Assembly (NCBI RefSeq): GCF_055900595.2 | Contig: NZ_CM148325.1 | Direction: 5' to 3' (one strand) | DNA length: 64,000 nt | Shown here: positions 6,539-23,581 of the stretch, one piece after another | How the letters are laid out: each line of letters opens with the position of its first letter | How positions within the stretch are numbered: the stretch's first letter is position 1 | The notes under the pieces: generated by a model | Seen by the model: only the letters and a program-made list of their open reading frames with translations | What the model was told of the DNA's origin: nothing | The model's database searches: none | Position numbers and translations under genes: made by a program

Positions 6539-7798
6539 ATGCTGGTATCTAACTATAATTATGTAATCAGCCGTCGTCGTTTACTGCAAGGTGCGGGCGC
6601 CATGTGGCTATTGAGCGTAAGTCAGGTCAGCCTGGCTGCGGTCAGCCAGGTCGTGGCGGTACGCGTCTGGCCTGCGTCCAGCTACACCCGCGTGACGGTA
6701 GAATCAAATCGTCAGCTGCAATATAAGCAGTTCGCGTTAAGTAACCCTGAACGTGTGGTGGTGGATATCGAAGATGTAAACCTGAACTCGGTACTCAAGG
6801 GGATGGCGGCACAAATTCGTGCAGACGACCCGTTCATCAAGTCGGCGCGCGTCGGGCAATTTGACCCGCAAACCGTACGCATGGTTTTTGAATTAAAGCA
6901 AAACGTAAAACCGCAGCTGTTTGCCCTTGCGCCGGTCGCCGGGTTTAAAGAGCGTCTGGTGATGGACCTCTATCCGGCCAATGCACAGGATATGCAGGAC
7001 CCGCTGCTGGCGCTGCTGGAGGATTACAACAAAGGCGACCTCGAAAAGCAGGTGCCGCCAGCACAAAGTGGTCCACAACCGGGTAAAGCAGGGCGTGATC
7101 GTCCGATTGTCATTATGCTTGACCCCGGCCACGGTGGCGAAGACCCCGGTGCGGTGGGGAAATACAAAACACGCGAAAAAGACGTGGTATTGCAAATAGC
7201 TCGCCGTCTGCGCTCTCTGATCGAAAAAGAGGGTAATATGAAGGTGTACATGACGCGCAATGAAGACATCTTCATTCCGTTGCAAGTGCGTGTAGCAAAA
7301 GCACAGAAACAACGTGCTGACCTTTTTGTTTCTATCCATGCTGATGCCTTTACCAGTCGCCAGCCGAGCGGTTCTTCCGTGTTTGCGCTTTCGACCAAAG
7401 GCGCGACAAGTACTGCGGCAAAATATCTGGCACAAACCCAGAACGCCTCGGACTTGATTGGCGGCGTGAGCAAAAGCGGTGACCGCTATGTCGACCACAC
7501 CATGTTCGATATGGTGCAGTCTCTGACCATTGCCGACAGCCTGAAGTTGGGTAAAGCGGTGCTGAATAAGCTCGGTAAAATCAACAAGCTGCATAAAAAT
7601 CAGGTTGAACAGGCCGGGTTTGCCGTGCTGAAAGCACCTGATATTCCCTCCATTCTGGTCGAAACGGCGTTTATCAGTAACGTTGAGGAAGAGCGCAAAC
7701 TGAAAACGGCAAGATTCCAACAACAAGTGGCAGAATCTATCCTAGAGGGAATTAAAGAGTATTTTTCGGATATAGACGCGTTAGCGAGAAAAGCATAA
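6539..7798 (+). CDS. amiC: N-acetylmuramoyl-L-alanine amidase AmiC-like, Tat signal; first residues differ from the AmiC N-terminus I recall
   Basis: 419-aa ORF with twin-arginine motif [19 protein letters not shown] and amidase_3 regions; preceded by 650 bp of AT-rich DNA without ORFs. Confidence 0.85.
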
Positions 7799-14699: not shown

Positions 14700-15160
14700 T
14701 TTAACGATCTCGGTCGTAGTATAAACTTTTTTGATAAATAAATAGAGACCTGTCCAGGCAATCTGAATGCTGTCAGCGTATTGCAAAAGCTAAAGGCATT
14801 GGTCCTGAAATTGTCACGAGCGTTGTTGCTGTTATTATTGGCAAAGGCACTGAATTTAAGAATGATCGTCACTGTGCTGCATGGCTTGGTCTGCTTCCAT
14901 GCCTGCACTAGAGTTGCTGCAGGTAAGTTCTCATGAATATAACGAAAAAAGGCGACAAGCATCTGCAAACACTTTTTATTCATGGCGTCCGTGCTGTCGT
15001 TAGAGTTGCTACGAATAATAATGATGTATACCTAAATCAGTGGGTTAAGCAGTTAAAGGAGAGTCGCGAATTTAATAAAACTACTGTGGAGATTGCTAAC
15101 AAATACGCGAGAATAATCTGGTCGATGCTGATAAATGATACAGAATATCAGGCAGTGTGA
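14700..15160 (+). pseudogene. IS110-family transposase C-terminal remnant, host of the IS630 insertion
   Basis: AAWLGLLPC and KGDKHLQTLFIHGVRAVV C-terminal motifs, with stops upstream. Confidence 0.55.
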
Positions 15161-15169
15161 AGTTAATCT

Positions 15170-15510
15170 CTTTCAGCAAAAGTTGCAGCGTACTGAGAAA
15201 TGGTGACGGGTTGCACCTGCACAATCGGAACCTGATTTTTGTACTGGCCTCAGAGGTCGTCCAGTTGTAGAGGCGATTGTGTGTGGATTCCCTATTTGGG
15301 CACAGGTTTTCCTGATGCCGGATAGATGTAAGCAACAATCCAAAACCAGAATCAGTGCTTGCAAAACTGAGGTAGTCAATAGATGTAGTAAGTGGCTTCA
15401 GAAATACCGGCTTCCCGACAAACATCTTTAATTGTTCGTCCGGTTTCAACCGATTTAATTACAGCGATGATCTAATACTCAGTAATACGGGCTTTACGCA
15501 TAGCGATTTT
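15170..15510 (-). pseudogene. IS3-like OrfA (HTH transposase) remnant
   Basis: minus-strand translation IAVIKSVETGRTIKDVCREAGISEATYY with in-frame stops. Confidence 0.4.
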
Positions 15511-15824
15511 CTTCGTTATCAGATTGATTATTCCGGATGATCTCTAAATATGAATGGAGCGATTATGCGGGATACTTACAGATGGCTCTCACTTAATGAG
15601 AGTCTTCTTTCAAACAACAAAAACAGTAAATTGGGTAGAATGGGGAACTTAACTGCATCGTTAATTAATATATGGATGCGCTGTTGTAAAATATAGATGT
15701 ATCGGGGATAATAATACTTTACTCTGTTTCCAGCGAGTATGTTTGGTTTGCTGGACAAAGCGCCTCATAAAGTCAGAGGCGCTCAAAGTAGAAATATATT
15801 TCAGAGGGAATGTATCATAATGTA

Positions 15825-16109
15825 CTAGTGGTTCTTTGATGGTATATCAAAAATGTTTGTGTGAACTGTATAACAGCCCTCCAGTAGTGATGCTAGCCAT
15901 TTGAAAGATTTCTGCTGTTCTGAAGACCATCTGGAATTATTTGATTCAAAATGAATGAATGCCAGTATTTGTATCATCTGTTCCTTAGGAAGCGATGAAG
16001 CCAGATATGAAAATGCAACCGTGAGAGCATTCATGTCGTCTCGAAGCATTGACATGTACTCGAGTAATTCCTGCAGAGTAATTGTTCTATTGTCCATAAA
16101 ACTCCTCAT
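15825..16109 (-). CDS. hypothetical 94-aa protein, divergent from iha
   Basis: ORF only; no family recognised; may start at internal Met. Confidence 0.3.
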   Translation of the reverse strand: MRSFMDNRTITLQELLEYMSMLRDDMNALTVAFSYLASSLPKEQMIQILAFIHFESNNSRWSSEQQKSFKWLASLLEGCYTVHTNIFDIPSKNH

Positions 16110-16353
16110 TATTAATTATATTCACCTGTCTGATGTACGAAATATCCGATAGTGTATGATTAACATATCCAAGGACAAGAAACTGATAAAGATTGGATAA
16201 ATACCCATAGTGCAAAAATCCGATATGGATCGTCAACGATTGCTATCCGTTACTTTCCCCTAGAGAAAAGAACGTCCTCAACTGAAATTCGGGGTATAGT
16301 AGAACCTTATGTAATATTTTGTAATTTTTTGCTTTTTTATGTAAAAACCAAAA

Positions 16354-16372
16354 GCAAATCATTCTCATTATC
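16354..16372 (+). promoter_or_regulatory. putative Fur box upstream of iha
   Basis: GCAAATCATTCTCATTATC matches 14 of 19 positions of GATAATGATAATCATTATC, about 50 bp upstream of the iha start. Confidence 0.4.
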
Positions 16373-16421
16373 TCTTGCGTTTGTTTATCTTCTCTCTGAT
16401 TAATATAATCGGAGAGAAGAT

Positions 16422-18509
16422 ATGCGAGTAACCACTCTGGCTTCAGTAGCCATCCCTTGTCTCGGGTTTTCAGTCAGCAGTATGGCTGCGGAAGATGTGA
16501 TGGTAGTCACGGCGTCTGGCTATGAAAAAAAATTAACCAGTGCAGCTGCGAGTGTTTCAGTGATCAGCCAGGAGGATTTGCGATCCAGCCAGTATCATGA
16601 TCTGGGGGAGGCACTGAGATCCGTAGAGGGGGTGGATGTTGAAAGCGGTACGGGTAAAACAGGTGGGCTGGAAATCAGCATCCGCGGAATGCCTGCCAGT
16701 TATACGCTGATACTGATCGATGGTGTCCGTCAGGGCGGGAGCAGTGACGTAACCCCAAACGGTTATGCTGCCATGAATACGGGTTTTATGCCACCTCTGG
16801 CCGCCATCGAACGTATTGAGATTATCAGGGGCCCCATGTCCACTCTGTACGGCTCTGATGCCATGGGGGGCGTGGTGAATATCATCACCAAAAAGAATGC
16901 AGACAAATGGCGCTCTTCGGTTAATGCCGGGCTGAACCTGCAGGAAAGTAACAAATGGGGGAACAGCAGCCAGTTTAATTTCTGGAGCAGCGGTCCCCTT
17001 GTGGATGATTCACTCAGCCTTCAGGTACGTGGCAGCACACAGCAGCGTCAGGGCTCATCGGTCACATCACTGAGCGACACCTCAGCTACGCGTATCCCTT
17101 ATCCCACGGAATCACAGAATTATAATGCAGGTGGTCGTCTTGACTGGAAAGCGACGGACAAGGATGTACTCTGGATTGATATGGATATCGCCCGGCAGCG
17201 TTATGATAACCGAGATGGCCAGCTGGGCAGTCTGACGGGCGGTTATGATCGCACCCTGCGCTATGAGCGTAATAAAATTTCAGCAGGCTATGATCATACA
17301 TTCACCTTCGGAGCCTGGAAGTCATCCCTGAACTGGAATGAGACGGAAAATAAAGGCCGTCAGCTTGTACGTAGCGTACTGCAGCGTGATAAATGGGGGC
17401 TTGCCGGCCAGCCGAGGGAGCTTAAGGAGTCGAATCTTATCCTGAGCTCATTACTGTTTGCACCTCTGGGGGAATCACACAAGGTTACCGTCGGTGGTGA
17501 GTATCAGAACTCCTCCATGAAAGACGGGGTTGTTCTCGCCAGTACTGGTGAAACCTTCCGTCAGAAAAGCTGGTCGGCATTTGTTGAGGATGAGTGGTAT
17601 ATCACGGATGCATTTGCACTGACTGCGGGTAGCCGCTATGAACGCTATGAGGTGTTCGGAGGACACTTCAGTCCCCGGGCATATATGGTCTGGGATGTGA
17701 CTGATGCGTGGACGCTGAAAGGTGGGGTGACCACGGGATATAAGGCGCCCAGCATGGGGCAGTTACATAAGGGGATCAGCGGTGTGTCCGGTCAGGGGCG
17801 TACGAATCTTCTCGGTAACCCGGACCTGAAGCCGGAGGAGAGTGTCAGTTATGAAGCGGGCGTGTATTACGATAATCATGCCGGTCTGAACGCCAATATC
17901 ACGGGCTTTATGACAGAATTCTCCAACAAGATCGTATCTTATTCCATTGATGATAATACCCGCAGCTACACAAACAGCGGAAAGGCTAGGACTCAGGGCG
18001 TGGAATTTGCCGGCACACTGCCTCTGTTGTCAGAGGATGTGACTCTGTCTCTGAATTATACCTGGACGCAGAGTGAACAACGGGATGGGGATAATAAAGG
18101 TGCACCACTGAGTTACACCCCTGAGCATATGGTGAATGCGAAACTGAACTGGCAGATTACTGAAGAGGTGACATCATGGCTGGGTGCCCGTTACCGCGGG
18201 AAAACGCCACGTTTCACCCAGAATTATTCGTCACTCTCAGCTGTACAGAAGAAAGTGTATGATGAGAAAGGTGAATATCTGAAAGCCTGGACGGTACTGG
18301 ATGCGGGCATGTCGTGGAAAGTGACGGATGCACTGATGCTGAATGCAGCGGTGAATAATGTGCTTAACAAGGATTACAGTGACGTAAGTCTGTATCGTGC
18401 CGGCAGTGGTACGCTTTATGCGGGTGATTACTTCCAGACGGGGGCATCGACAACGGGTTATGTGATACCTGAGAGAAATTACTGGATGTCGCTGAACTAT
18501 CAGTTCTGA
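16422..18509 (+). CDS. iha: TonB-dependent outer-membrane siderophore receptor / adhesin Iha
   Basis: 695-aa ORF with signal peptide, plug domain, beta-barrel and C-terminal aromatic residue; matches remembered Iha N-terminus. Confidence 0.85.
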   Translation: MRVTTLASVAIPCLGFSVSSMAAEDVMVVTASGYEKKLTSAAASVSVISQEDLRSSQYHDLGEALRSVEGVDVESGTGKTGGLEISIRGMPASYTLILIDGVRQGGSSDVTPNGYAAMNTGFMPPLAAIERIEIIRGPMSTLYGSDAMGGVVNIITKKNADKWRSSVNAGLNLQESNKWGNSSQFNFWSSGPLVDDSLSLQVRGSTQQRQGSSVTSLSDTSATRIPYPTESQNYNAGGRLDWKATDKDVLWIDMDIARQRYDNRDGQLGSLTGGYDRTLRYERNKISAGYDHTFTFGAWKSSLNWNETENKGRQLVRSVLQRDKWGLAGQPRELKESNLILSSLLFAPLGESHKVTVGGEYQNSSMKDGVVLASTGETFRQKSWSAFVEDEWYITDAFALTAGSRYERYEVFGGHFSPRAYMVWDVTDAWTLKGGVTTGYKAPSMGQLHKGISGVSGQGRTNLLGNPDLKPEESVSYEAGVYYDNHAGLNANITGFMTEFSNKIVSYSIDDNTRSYTNSGKARTQGVEFAGTLPLLSEDVTLSLNYTWTQSEQRDGDNKGAPLSYTPEHMVNAKLNWQITEEVTSWLGARYRGKTPRFTQNYSSLSAVQKKVYDEKGEYLKAWTVLDAGMSWKVTDALMLNAAVNNVLNKDYSDVSLYRAGSGTLYAGDYFQTGASTTGYVIPERNYWMSLNYQF

Positions 18510-18550
18510 TAACAACAAACCCGATATAACGCATTATAATACGTAAAGAT

Positions 18551-18581
18551 GCTGCCTCTGTCACCTGAGGGCAGTGGCAGC
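18551..18581 (+). terminator. hairpin downstream of iha
   Basis: GCTGCCTCTGTCACCTGAGGGCAGTGGCAGC inverted repeat. Confidence 0.35.
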
Positions 18582-18995
18582 AACACACGATGCAGGTGTT
18601 TGATCACCAGTGACCCGCCGTTTACTCCTTTAGTATGGCATACTTCTGTTGTCACCTGTGACCAGGCGCGCGACTCTGTAAACATCCGGATGTATGCGTT
18701 CTTCTGACAGTTAATATTACCGGCAGGTAGTTGACGATGTGTGGGCTTGTGACCGCATCCGGGTAATAAAGAAATAATCCGCCAGCGGCTTTTATTCTTA
18801 TGGGCAGTAATTAAATACATCGCCATGTGGGTAAATATAAGTGACGGAATGAGAGTAACAAGTGATGCTGGAATTAAGATTTTGCTTTTTGCAGTGATAG
18901 CCAGAGCCTTTTACAGAAATGTGGTATGAGGTGCATTTTTTACGCTCACATTATTGTTTTATTATCGGCGTCAACCAGTGATCAGGAGGTGCAAC

Positions 18996-19247
18996 ATGCG
19001 TATATGTGTTTTTGGTTACAAAACATGTCCTTCAGTACACCGGATCATGCATCATGCGACAAATCTCCGGGATGAAACAGGGGCAGATGTCCTCTTTATT
19101 GATGCTGAGAAACATGGTATCAGTCTGAAGGTAATGTCTGAGCGTGCTGGATGTGCAGTTGAAAAATTCCCCTGTGTTTTTGTTGATGACGTCTATCTCG
19201 AACCACTGCCACCGGTGCCGGGACAACCTCATTATACTTATTGTTGA
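18996..19247 (+). CDS. small hypothetical protein, possibly thioredoxin/glutaredoxin-fold
   Basis: starts MRICVFGYKTCPSV; loose resemblance to NrdH-like layout. Confidence 0.25.
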   Translation: MRICVFGYKTCPSVHRIMHHATNLRDETGADVLFIDAEKHGISLKVMSERAGCAVEKFPCVFVDDVYLEPLPPVPGQPHYTYC

Positions 19248-19442
19248 AAATCACCACTTGGTATGAATCAGTTCCCCGGCTTTGTGAAAGGCCGGGTATA
19301 ATCACAGACTGTCTGTTATGCTTGGCAGATACACTTCCCCGGATCCCACCGTAATTTTTTAATCCCGTTTTTAATTTATTGCTGATAAATGAGCGCTTTC
19401 TTCGCACGCTGTCAGTCAGATAATATCTGACTGAGGTGTACG

Positions 19443-19838
19443 ATGTACCGGATTTTCTGTTCCCTGTTTTTCCTGCCGCTGGCAGCGTCTGCCGGCACAA
19501 CAATTTATACCGATTCTCAGCATCTTCCCGTTAATCCTCCTGATGGTGTCAGGGTGGTTCTGCTGGATGCGCCTGAGCAGCTTCAGAGCCGCTTTTGGGG
19601 CCTGTTGCCTGCTGATGCGGGTGAGGCTGAATCGGTGGTCAGGGTACGTATGAAGTCTCCCGAATGGCAGACGATGCAGGCGGAACTGGCCGGTCATTAC
19701 CGCGATGTGGCACATGCCTAGTCGCTGGGCGTGAAGAAATACCCTGCCGTGGTGTTTGATGACAGTGAGGTGGTTTACGGCACCATGGATGTGGTGATGG
19801 CCGGGAAAATCCGTGCTGAGGGAGGAGTGCAGCCATGA
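19443..19838 (+). pseudogene. secreted integrating-conjugative-element-type protein with in-frame amber stop at 19719-19721
   Basis: signal peptide; reading frame continues unchanged after TAG to 19838. Confidence 0.45.
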
Positions 19839-20812
19839 TGTCCCTGAAATGTCGTCTGCGTACCGGCGTGCTGTTACTGAGTGTGGCATCACTGCCCCTG
19901 GCGTCTGTATCACTGAACACCGCCAGCATTATCGCCAGTACTGCGGCACCGGACTATATCAGCTGGCGTGTCAGCGGGATTTGTTACTGGCTTTACTGCA
20001 GCGCGTCTGGCTGTACGGTCAGAATTTCCGTGAAGGTGACACATTTCATCCCGGAAGTGGTTATTTCCACCTATACGGCACCGGGTGGTAATCCCTGGAA
20101 AGAGATGTCGCTGGTCAGCCGGACCGCAGGTGGCCCGGAGAATGCCATCACTGACGGCCTGTCCGGGCTGAGTGCCGGCGGGGGAAATCCGGCGGATATG
20201 AAAATACAGGGGAAGCGCCGTTCAGCAATTCGTTTCAAATACGCAGATGCGCTGGGTCATCCGGCCACACAGCTTATCGGCGGGATGGTACCCGGATTCA
20301 GCTGTGATTCACCGGTGACACCGGCCATGGCCTATTTCCTCAGTACCCTGGACAGCATCGTCTAGCGAACGGGATTACCTGAATCCCTGTATCCAGAGGC
20401 ACAGGTTCCCGGCAAACGCGAGATTGGCAGCTAGGCCGATAAAAACATGTGGGGGAGCGTTTATCACCGGAGTGGTTTTGTGATGCAGAGCGATGATGAC
20501 CGGGCCGCGGCGGTGGGGGCTCAGCGGGTGGCCGACATTATCACGCGGATGGGGGAGTCGCATGTCTACAGGGAGGTTAAGGGCGTGAAACGTGACGGCT
20601 ACTGGCCCCCGGAGGCGGTGGAGGAAAACACCGGCACCCGCAATCACAAATGGCAGCGACTGACGCCGTCAGTGTCGCGTTCCTGTGCCGTTTTCCCGGA
20701 TGGTGAACACCAGGCGGCGGAGAACGGTAATGCAGCCTTTGCACTGTGGCAGCCTTACAGCTGCTTCGAAAAGCGCGGGCAGCGATTCCTTGGCAGTACG
20801 AATTTTTAAGGA
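19835..20812 (+). pseudogene. TraU-like conjugative transfer protein, disrupted
   Basis: signal peptide plus Cys-rich N-terminus; stop at 20365 then continuation in another frame to 20812. Confidence 0.35.
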
Positions 20813-20815
20813 ACC

Positions 20816-21550
20816 ATGATGATGAAGATGAAAACAGGTATGGTGGCACTGAGTGTGATGCTGTACTGCAGTATTCCGGCGATGGCTGATCTTCTTTCCC
20901 TGCCGAAACTGAATGACAGCACGTTCGGTTACGGGAAATCCGTGGATGGCGCCGTATCCGACAAACTGTTCTATACGCTGGGTGGCGGCTCGGTGATCTC
21001 ACAGTTGGCCACGCGCAGCAACATGCAGAAGCTGGGTATGGACCTGGGCTGGAGCAGCGATCTGATGTGCGGCAACTTTGACCTGAAGACCACGGTGGGT
21101 AATCATCTTAACGGATTGACCGACGGCTTTAAAAATCTGATGGGGGATGTGATTTAGGGGGCGACCGGCGCCGCTGCCAGTCTGCCGGCGATGGTGATAC
21201 AGCGTGCCAACCCCGGCCTGTACGACATGATCACCAACGGTGTGCTGCAGGCGAATGTGGCTTTCGACAAGGCGTAACTGAACTGCCAGAACATGGCAAA
21301 ACGGATGATGGACTTTTCTGATCGCAGCAAATGGACGCAGGCCAGCGATGCTGGAAGAGTACAAGAAGGTGGTGAACAGCGGTGACGGTGATGCGGTGAA
21401 AGGGGACGAGGCCGGACGTCAGGCCACCGGGAAGGAAGGTAAGAAATGGATTGGCGGGCAGCAGCGCGGCGGGGCAGGTCAGCCCGCCATCCGGCCGGTG
21501 CATGATCTGACAGCGGCTGGGTTTAACATGATGAACAGTCTGCCCGTGAC
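20816..21550 (+). pseudogene. secreted conjugation-module protein, frameshifted
   Basis: signal peptide MKTGMVALSVMLYCSIPAMA; ORF broken after 113 aa with continuation in other frames. Confidence 0.35.
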
Positions 21551-21559
21551 CAGTACGGG

Positions 21560-21945
21560 AGGTTACGATAAAGCCGACAGTGCAGGATGTGATGTTAGGA
21601 GCGATAGAAAAACGCTTTGGCGATAAAGGACCGGAACGAGCAATCCAGTGGCGGACGGATAACGGTTCGGCTTATACGGCTCATGAAACACGGCAATTCG
21701 CCAGAGAGTTGAATCTGGAGCCCTGCACGACGGCAGTCAGTAGCCCTCAGAGCAATAGAATGGCAGAAAGGTTCGTGAAAACGTGAATGAAGACTACATC
21801 GCGTTCATGCCGAAACTGAATGTAATAACGGCATTGCATAACCTTGCAGAGGCGTTCGAGCATTACAATGAAAACCATCCGCATAGTGCGTTAGGTTATC
21901 TCTCACCACGGGAATATCGACGTCAGCGGATAACGTTAACTTAAG
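21560..21945 (+). pseudogene. DDE (rve-type) transposase C-terminal fragment
   Basis: [25 protein letters not shown] ... [14 protein letters not shown] integrase-core tail with internal stop. Confidence 0.5.
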
Positions 21946-22243
21946 ATACAATAGCAGTCTGATATTGAGGGGGCAAGAACATCCGAACCACACCAGCCTG
22001 TGACTTATACCCTGTCTCTACGACCCAGAGAGTATTATTCTTAATAATCTCATAATATATACACAATAGGAAGTATCTATTAACAAAATAGAGAACATCG
22101 TTTTTACTATCAAATAGTTGCACTGTATTAATATGATTAAACTTTAAAAAAGTTTCAGGCTGATCAGGAGGAGTTATGAAAAAAATAAATATTTTAATTC
22201 TGTGTCTGTTTTCTGGAGCGTCGTGGGCAAGTGACGTAGATAA

Positions 22244-22252
22244 TGTTAAGTG
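22244..22252. repeat. 9-bp target-site duplication TGTTAAGTG, left copy
   Basis: identical 9-mer at 23582-23590 immediately after the IS10 inside end. Confidence 0.9.
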
Positions 22253-23581
22253 CTGATGAATCCCCTAATGATTTTTATCAAAATCATTAAGTTAAGGTAG
22301 ATACACATCTTGTCATATGATCAAATGGTTTCGCCAAAAATCAATAATCAGACAACAAAATGTGCGAACTCGATATTTTACACGACTCTCTTTACCAATT
22401 CTGCCCCGAATTACACTTAAAACGACTCAACAGCTTAACGTTGGCTTGCCACGCCTTACTTGACTGTAAAACTCTCACTCTTACCGAACTTGGCCGTAAC
22501 CTGCCAACCAAAGCGAGAACAAAACATAACATCAAACGAATCGACCGATTGTTAGGTAATCGTCACCTCCACAAAGAGCGACTCGCTGTATACCGTTGGC
22601 ATGCTAGCTTTATCTGTTCGGGCAATACGATGCCCATTGTACTTGTTGACTGGTCTGATATCCGTGAGCAAAAACGGCTTATGGTATTGCGAGCTTCAGT
22701 CGCACTACACGGTCGTTCTGTTACTCTTTATGAGAAAGCGTTCCCGCTTTCAGAGCAATGTTCAAAGAAAGCTCATGACCAATTTCTAGCCGACCTTGCG
22801 AGCATTCTACCGAGTAACACCACACCGCTCATTGTCAGTGATGCTGGCTTTAAAGTGCCATGGTATAAATCCGTTGAGAAGCTGGGTTGGTACTGGTTAA
22901 GTCGAGTAAGAGGAAAAGTACAATATGCAGACCTAGGAGCGGAAAACTGGAAACCTATCAGCAACTTACATGATATGTCATCTAGTCACTCAAAGACTTT
23001 AGGCTATAAGAGGCTGACTAAAAGCAATCCAATCTCATGCCAAATTCTATTGTATAAATCTCGCTCTAAAGGCCGAAAAAATCAGCGCTCGACACGGACT
23101 CATTGTCACCACCCGTCACCTAAAATCTACTCAGCGTCGGCAAAGGAGCCATGGATTCTAGCAACTAACTTACCTGTTGAAATTCGAACACCCAAACAAC
23201 TTGTTAATATCTATTCGAAGCGAATGCAGATTGAAGAAACCTTCCGAGACTTGAAAAGTCCTGCCTACGGACTAGGCCTACGCCATAGCCGAACGAGCAG
23301 CTCAGAGCGTTTTGATATCATGCTGCTAATCGCCCTGATGCTTCAACTAACATGTTGGCTTGCGGGCGTTCATGCTCAGAAACAAGGTTGGGACAAGCAC
23401 TTCCAGGCTAACACAGTCAGAAATCGAAACGTACTCTCAACAGTTCGCTTAGGCATGGAAGTTTTGCGGCATTCTGGCTACACAATAACAAGGGAAGACT
23501 CACTCGTGGCTGCAACCCTGCTTACTCAAAATCTATTCACACATGGTTACGTTTTGGGGAAATTATGAGGGGATCTCTCAG
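22253..23581 (+). mobile_element. IS10, complete
   Basis: 1329 bp; outside end CTGATGAATCCCCTAATGATTTT at 22253, inside end ...GGGGATCTCTCAG at 23581. Confidence 0.95.
22360..23568 (+). CDS. IS10 transposase
   Basis: 402-aa ORF matching remembered IS10 transposase (MCELDILHDSLYQFCPELHLKRLNS...). Confidence 0.95.
   Translation: MCELDILHDSLYQFCPELHLKRLNSLTLACHALLDCKTLTLTELGRNLPTKARTKHNIKRIDRLLGNRHLHKERLAVYRWHASFICSGNTMPIVLVDWSDIREQKRLMVLRASVALHGRSVTLYEKAFPLSEQCSKKAHDQFLADLASILPSNTTPLIVSDAGFKVPWYKSVEKLGWYWLSRVRGKVQYADLGAENWKPISNLHDMSSSHSKTLGYKRLTKSNPISCQILLYKSRSKGRKNQRSTRTHCHHPSPKIYSASAKEPWILATNLPVEIRTPKQLVNIYSKRMQIEETFRDLKSPAYGLGLRHSRTSSSERFDIMLLIALMLQLTCWLAGVHAQKQGWDKHFQANTVRNRNVLSTVRLGMEVLRHSGYTITREDSLVAATLLTQNLFTHGYVLGKL

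Follow-up and report, generated by a model that had tools for sequence, protein, structure and literature searches.

A decayed fragment of an SPI-7/PFGI-1/pKLC102-class integrative conjugative element adjoining an intact iha gene in Escherichia coli

Positions 16308-21558 of the window (the whole 64-kb stretch of DNA analysed here) are very probably the leftover of an integrative conjugative element (ICE) of the SPI-7/PFGI-1/pKLC102 class that carried iha, in which the transfer genes are decaying and are kept by their linkage to iha. Three colinear genes of this class, i.e., a TIGR03757/DUF1525 gene, a TIGR03756/TraU-like gene and the first half of a TIGR03755 gene, occupy 19443-21558, and all three are dead (Table 1). 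The locus descends from an ICE of this class but is not functionally a member of it, as the defining machinery is absent and the reading frames of the transfer genes are broken, and it is not a functional ICE now.

Table 1. Features of the ICE-derived fragment, its lesions and its surroundings (window coordinates)
Feature	Position	Strand	Evidence or change
iha segment of the ICE-derived fragment	16308..18582	+	93.5% nt identity to the matching part of the VTB96815v ICE
iha CDS, 695 aa	16422-18509		intact
Lineage-specific spacer, 780 bp, in place of 385 bp of the intact ICE	18583..19362	.	no homology to L002 or L005
Glutaredoxin-like ORF, 83 aa	18996-19247	+	weak GrxA-profile match, 33 bits vs cut-off 84
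TIGR03757/DUF1525 pseudogene	19443..19838	+	profile match; one in-frame TAG 19719-19721; RefSeq 'internal stop'
Lesion, TIGR03757 gene	19719		TGG>TAG
TIGR03756/TraU-like pseudogene	19835..20809	+	profile match; TAG 20363-20365 and TAG 20432-20434
Lesion, TIGR03756 gene	20363		TGG>TAG
Lesion, TIGR03756 gene	20432		CAG>TAG
TIGR03755-family 5' half, ~246 of 472 codons	20816..21558	+	profile match; two stops, +1 A, cut at 21558
Lesion, TIGR03755 gene	21155		CAG>TAG
Lesion, TIGR03755 gene	21275		CAA>TAA
Lesion, TIGR03755 gene	21344		+1 A; sole indel in 2195 nt
Lesion, TIGR03755 gene	21558/21559		everything past here lost
IS3-family 3' fragment, ISEc48-like, itself frameshifted	21559..21981	+	~90% nt identity to ISEc48 over ~423 bp
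IS10	22253-23581
Island integrase, P4-type with arm-binding domain	37631-38848	minus

The region 18990-21960 was translated in three frames, and stops were replaced by X before the profile searches. All three reconstructed ORFs matched TIGRFAM ICE profiles, and the second one also matched TraU (PF06834), in agreement with the sequence-only reading, which had proposed from the letters alone that these genes are an ICE conjugation block. The matches clearly exceed what chance would give, and the outcome that was to refute this proposal, a lack of ICE-family matches for every reconstructed ORF, did not occur. The stop-masked TIGR03757 translation scored 115.2 bits against its family (cut-off 73.2, E 1.6e-33) and also matched DUF1525 (PF07511, E 2.6e-30), while the TraU-like gene scored 371.6 bits against TIGR03756 (cut-off 188.35, E 2.8e-111), covering profile positions 1-297 of 298. 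Its reconstructed product of 324 aa scored 160.7 bits against PF06834 (gathering score 26.5, E 7e-47, positions 24-303 of 306) and in this resembles the periplasmic TraU of F-type conjugation encoded by the F plasmid, but the window gene belongs to the ICE-specific TIGR03756 subfamily and is inactivated. The third gene matched TIGR03755 in two frame pieces, at profile positions 1-137 (192.6 bits, E 1e-56) and 135-205 (78.1 bits, E 6e-22), each under the cut-off of 270.45 because only positions 1-205 of the 419 in the profile are left; over its 5' half, the intact gene of the ICE in strain VTB96815v shows 95% identity to this remnant. The ICE class was assigned on the basis of the TIGRFAM ICE families and of the RefSeq names of the neighbouring genes in the intact relative. 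ICEs of the SPI-7/PFGI-1/pKLC102-PAPI-1/ICEclc class, which occur in Enterobacteriaceae and pseudomonads and use MPF-G type IV secretion, are the nearest known relatives of the block and have the same three genes in the same order and with the same overlaps. Judged by eye, the signal peptides of the three genes are MYRIFCSLFFLPLAASA/G, MMSLKCRLRTGVLLLSVASLPLASV and MMMKMKTGMVALSVMLYCSIPAMA/D, respectively. The G+C content of the ICE genes is 57-61%, and it is lower in the surroundings. Seven minus-strand ORFs of 90-165 aa across the block had no Pfam match and were rejected as genes, being antisense artefacts of G+C-rich coding DNA without any family match. Promoter and terminator scans gave nothing beyond the shuffled expectation.

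An intact ICE of ~81.5 kb with iha in the transfer operon is present at the pheV locus of strain VTB96815v (NZ_CP178648.1, 839.8-921.3 kb), where its edges are a tRNA-Ser gene by the kps capsule cluster and the tRNA-Phe gene (pheV) by yqgA/speC. It starts with ParA, an SPI-7-type DnaB, ParB, replication proteins of the STY4528/STY4534 families and topoisomerase III, followed by a PFGI-1-class PilL2, TraD, a run of TIGR037xx ICE genes and a conjugative ATPase, and then by iha, TIGR03757, TIGR03756, TIGR03755, TraG, a type IVB pilus operon, TraI and a tyrosine recombinase. Window positions 16308-18582 and 19363-21558 align, in order, with positions 17342-19615 and 20001-22195 of this ICE (locus L002), and in the transfer-gene part, 2195 nt long, the two are 95.1% identical and differ by only one indel. 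Genomes matching at 93-95% have intact copies of the three genes. As iha lies directly upstream of TIGR03757 in the intact ICE and in the window alike, the ICE-derived fragment, judged by this alignment, spans 16308-21558 (5.25 kb, iha included) and extends beyond the 18996-21550 first proposed. The start of the block that had been placed at 18996 did not hold, this position being the ATG of the glutaredoxin-like ORF, which is not an ICE core gene and has no signal peptide. Assignment of this ORF to the ICE core was rejected, since it is missing from the intact ICEs and has a homologue, 69% identical, in a non-ICE island.

The iha gene of the window is identical to a gene of strain GF4 that RefSeq names 'bifunctional siderophore receptor/adhesin Iha', and it is closer to the ICE-borne allele (93.5%) than to the classical iha of O157/ST131 (only ~86%). 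Sister ICEs in SF-088 and S19-651 have no iha at that spot, and iha is therefore an insertion at exactly that position, flanked in the iha-bearing ICE by a duplicated stretch of 77-92 nt from the 3' end of the ORF upstream. On the other hand, the window differs from the VTB96815v ICE in the spacer between iha and TIGR03757, which was found in the 59 remnant-bearing genomes only and is unrelated to the sequence at that place in the intact ICE, so that the VTB96815v-type element itself is not the direct ancestor. No published description of an iha-bearing SPI-7-class ICE was found in the literature searched. ICEEc2 of strain BEN374 (Roche et al. 2010) is a published E. coli ICE of the class that targets pheV/pheU and is cited in PMC11537424; the title of the former and the citing text of the latter are the sources for its closeness to the remnant in the window.

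The window keeps 3 of the ~80 genes of the VTB96815v ICE, all broken, and unlike SPI-7-class ICEs it has no integrase, relaxase, coupling protein, ATPase, pilus or att site. A tblastn search with all intact-ICE ORFs of at least 60 aa against the 64-kb window returned only iha, the three pseudogenes and IS66. No remnant of a relaxase, coupling protein, VirB4-like ATPase or ICE integrase was found within the window or in the annotation of the GF4 flank, and no further ICE gene was found across the >130 kb of surrounding island covered by GF4 and the window. Besides, the window contains no tRNA gene and no match to the pheV 3' repeat (att) with up to 3 mismatches allowed. Homology to the intact ICE ends at 21558 and the IS3-family fragment begins at the next position, which bears out the earlier view that the block was truncated by a transposase fragment. 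What is left of this IS is only the C-terminal ~120 aa of its transposase (IS2 TnpB profile positions 171-289 of 301, with rve and rve_3 matches); it scored 80.7 bits against NF033516 (cut-off 160), and neither a complete transposase nor terminal repeats are present. This fragment closes the ICE remnant on the right. On the left, an IS110 fragment is found ~730 bp past the end of the remnant. The IS10 copy of the window is found at this site in no complete RefSeq genome, and its RNA-OUT was the only Rfam match over 15000-23000.

The surroundings are an IS-rich mosaic island of >90 kb, which besides iha bears sit, sodC and the aerobactin genes (iuc/iutA). Both in the window and in GF4, this island stops 158 bp short of ynjA, and its integrase is 85% identical to that of SMS-3-5. 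The block corresponding to window 1-22252 is also present in SMS-3-5 (99.5-99.8%), where it lies within GI-pheV, of which the coordinates are given in PMC11537424. That the island of the window lies next to ynjA and not at pheV, with a P4-type integrase and no tRNA gene, counts against the ICE origin proposed here.

Two routes may have led to this arrangement. The sequence-only reading had concluded that conjugation brought in part of the island, which afterwards became immobile. This is plausible, and an ICE at pheV may have decayed in situ. With close to an even chance, however, the island never was an ICE, and IS-mediated recombination or transposition copied iha and flanking ICE DNA from a co-resident ICE into an existing island with a P4-type integrase. 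The 5.25-kb piece is bounded by the IS3-family cut on its right and has the IS110 fragment near its left end, and it sits in an IS-rich mosaic with an integrase of its own that, with its arm-binding domain, is unlike the 329-aa recombinase of the ICE, thus making capture from a co-resident ICE equally possible. The lack of any other ICE gene in the surrounding island also speaks for capture, as does the fact that in some carriers the query matches more than one place (2 in GF4 and 3 in TUM9803). Since the island of the window and GF4 lies by ynjA, not pheV, with the fragment IS-bounded and isolated in it, IS-mediated capture or a later relocation is favoured there. The SMS-3-5 block, on the other hand, lies at pheV (PMC11537424), where the intact ICE integrates. 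This speaks for erosion on the spot and would fit a tandem or nested ICE that decayed there. Capture as a composite transposon with identical flanking IS was rejected, as the IS110 element on the left and the IS3 element on the right belong to different families, and the same difference counts against a simple transposon in the capture route. Overall, the two routes seem about equally likely.

To polarise the lesions, the window was aligned with further remnant-bearing genomes and with three intact E. coli ICEs, to which it is 95%, 94% and 80% identical. Every nonsense codon of the window is a sense codon in the intact ICE relatives of this alignment, and each of the five arose by a G:C>A:T transition. 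The inactivation of all three genes that had been proposed is thereby confirmed, as together they have five premature stops, a single frameshift and a truncation. The guess that the single in-frame TAG of the TIGR03757 gene at 19719 derived from TGG proved right, since TGG is found in 3/3 intact relatives (L002, L005 and L006). The other two genes had been described as broken by stops and frameshifts, which stands for the stops in both genes and for the frameshift in the TIGR03755 gene, but the TraU-like gene has no indel.

Every carrier examined has the stops at 19719, 20363 and 21275 together with the +1 insertion and the IS cut, while 20432 is still CAG in VTB97379v and 21155 is still CAG in LH50-c, SMS-3-5, GF60 and VTB97379v. 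The distribution of the lesions over the carriers places the shared set first and the stop at 20432 later, and the stop at 21155, being absent from these four strains, is the youngest of the series. A sequencing error as the source of the lesions was rejected, as they recur in the independent assemblies of GF4, LH50-c, SMS-3-5, GF60 and VTB97379v. Strain-specific erosion by IS is also ongoing, with an IS66 between iha and TIGR03757 in SMS-3-5 and IS3 or IS1 insertions in others.

Constraint is relaxed in the transfer genes. Between the window and the intact ICE, dN/dS is 0.14 for iha, 0.69 for TIGR03757, 0.37 for TIGR03756 and 0.36 for the 5' part of TIGR03755, whereas two intact ICEs compared with each other give 0.16 for TIGR03756. 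On the window branch there are 86 substitutions (51 GC>AT vs 26 AT>GC), and in the analysed frames this branch has 21 synonymous and 41 non-synonymous changes (the 5 nonsense included), close to the 19.7 and 42.3 expected under the observed spectrum without constraint. Based on the dN/dS values and the substitution counts, iha is maintained and the transfer genes drift. In the same comparison dS is 0.165 for iha and roughly half as high, 0.07-0.09, for the ICE genes next to it, and the two parts may have partly separate histories, e.g., through recombination.

Considering these results, we propose that iha had inserted in the mating-pair-formation operon of an ICE, between a type IV secretion ATPase-plus-small-ORF pair and TIGR03757, and that the rest of the element (partition, replication, TraD, ATPase, pilus, relaxase and integrase) has been lost from the locus. 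In this scheme iha stays intact under purifying selection, while the three periplasmic or secreted transfer genes, left without partners, decay neutrally and have gained five G:C>A:T nonsense changes. The pseudogenes are very probably inert now and would persist through physical linkage to the selected cargo iha. The fragment has likely survived because iha belongs to the same ICE-derived piece, and we infer that this linkage explains the retention of the pseudogenes.

The number of stops allows a different reading. For the 62 coding substitutions of the branch, taken as unconstrained, 2.2 nonsense changes are expected and 5 were observed, an excess that is not significant (Poisson P=0.07), with a P of 0.03 if only three quarters of the substitutions are unconstrained. 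Besides, the remnant has one indel vs ~60 apparently neutral substitutions, which is fewer indels than expected for a long-dead bacterial pseudogene and counts against the scheme proposed above. Since ~2 stops are expected and 5 are seen, indels are few over 2.2 kb and the block is retained in 59 genomes, it is conceivable, although unlikely, that the stops are a selected silencing of orphan secretion parts and that the DNA is kept, e.g., as a homology patch for the exchange of iha alleles with incoming SPI-7-class ICEs. If true, such a route would have seeded a distinct ICE-borne iha subtype into ExPEC/APEC islands. Adaptive silencing as such, in which nonsense changes are selected because orphan periplasmic parts of a type IV secretion system on an iha-proximal transcript are costly, draws on the same excess of stops and on the single indel in 2.2 kb. 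We consider it quite improbable, as the excess is not significant, the stops that follow the first one in a gene bring no benefit yet still arise, and all five changes are G:C>A:T, matching the bias of the branch.

That the genes still function, either by amber read-through (through a suppressor tRNA or programmed) or as truncated N-terminal products of 92, 176 and 113 aa with a new role, is highly improbable. In its favour, TAG accounts for 4/5 stops, no stop is out of frame, full-length frames are preserved in the first two genes, and PGAP calls the 113-aa product a hypothetical protein. Against it, the stops are derived and more keep arising in sublineages, the ratio of non-synonymous to synonymous changes equals the unconstrained expectation, the third gene has a frameshift and no 3' half, the window has no secretion-system partners and no tRNA gene, and UAG termination is efficient in wild-type E. 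coli.

The decay of an ICE-derived block kept by linkage to iha is ordinary gene decay, and the pseudogene status of two of the three genes is already in public E. coli annotation. RefSeq records of the same remnant are ACHP5D_RS02125/RS02130 in GF4 and ECSMS35_RS15760/RS15755 in SMS-3-5. In GF4, PGAP names the first two genes as pseudogenes of the TIGR03757 and TIGR03756 families ('internal stop'). The IS piece is entered there as an incomplete integrase-core protein and the TIGR03755 fragment as 'hypothetical protein', and no connection between the block and iha is made. A cargo gene that outlives its mobile element is a textbook case and of little importance in itself. The iha-bearing ICE of this class is a small point of provenance and not a new kind of system, but it gives a concrete vehicle, i.e., a pheV-integrating SPI-7-class ICE, for the spread of this iha subtype, and the dated series of lesions could serve as lineage markers.

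The window is E. coli chromosome, and its positions 18900-21600 are 100% identical to GF4 and TUM9803. Some match to this region is found in 116 of the 5426 complete E. coli genomes, always on the chromosome, and the same remnant in 59 of them. The plasmid collection gave only partial matches of 75-79%, to ICE-like genes of Pantoea and Duffyella plasmids, and hence no sign of a plasmid origin. Many members of the island lineage that bears the remnant come from poultry and human extraintestinal sources.

The iha gene and the ICE genes adjoining it differ in their divergence from the intact iha-bearing ICE of about 81.5 kb located at pheV in strain VTB96815v (NZ_CP178648.1). While the synonymous divergence (dS) from the intact ICE was 0.165 for iha (window 16422-18509), it was 0.07-0.09 for the adjoining ICE genes (19443-21343), i.e., about half the value of iha, which suggests that recombination has exchanged iha alleles separately from the sequences on either side. 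In the intact ICE, direct repeats of 77-92 nt and 91% identity were observed on both sides of iha (17225-17301 and 19632-19708 of its segment L002). These repeats are copies of the 3'-terminal stretch of the ICE ORF that lies upstream, hinting that iha may have entered the ICE via a target-duplicating recombination.

In E. coli SMS-3-5, the shared mosaic island block lies at tRNA-Phe (pheV; NC_010498.1 3,197,159-3,289,098), whereas in the window and in strain GF4 the island terminates at a P4-type integrase that is separated from ynjA by 158 bp (window 37631-39006), and neither a tRNA nor a pheV repeat was found at this ynjA-side end. Two chromosomal sites have evidently been occupied by the island or its parts. 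The integrases of the window/GF4 and SMS-3-5 islands share 85% nucleotide identity.

Features of the island in the window
Feature	Window position	Strand	Remark
Second amiC-like N-acetylmuramoyl-L-alanine amidase gene	6539-7798		intact; annotated in GF4 and SMS-3-5
AT-rich segment	15580-16307		35-36% G+C
94-aa ORF	15825-16109	minus	in AT-rich segment
Glutaredoxin-fold-like ORF, 83 aa	18996-19247		conserved; inside lineage-specific 780-bp segment
IS10/ISVsa5	22253-23581		complete copy
RNA-OUT of IS10	22298-22367	minus
IS10/ISVsa5 transposase	22360-23568

The IS10 copy disrupts a gene for an SgcJ/EcaC-family oxidoreductase within its 5' part and is missing from the otherwise near-identical GF4, the comparison with which reveals its target duplication as a 9-bp overlap. 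Its junction in the window had no match in any complete RefSeq E. coli genome.

The AT-rich segment, found in this island lineage alone, separates the ICE-derived fragment, at its left boundary, from an IS110 fragment, and its 94-aa ORF gave no family match. The glutaredoxin-fold-like ORF contains a single CPSV motif, and a homologue of 69% identity occurs in another E. coli island, with BON-domain and DoxX genes on either side. The second amiC-like gene is surrounded by IS debris within the island.
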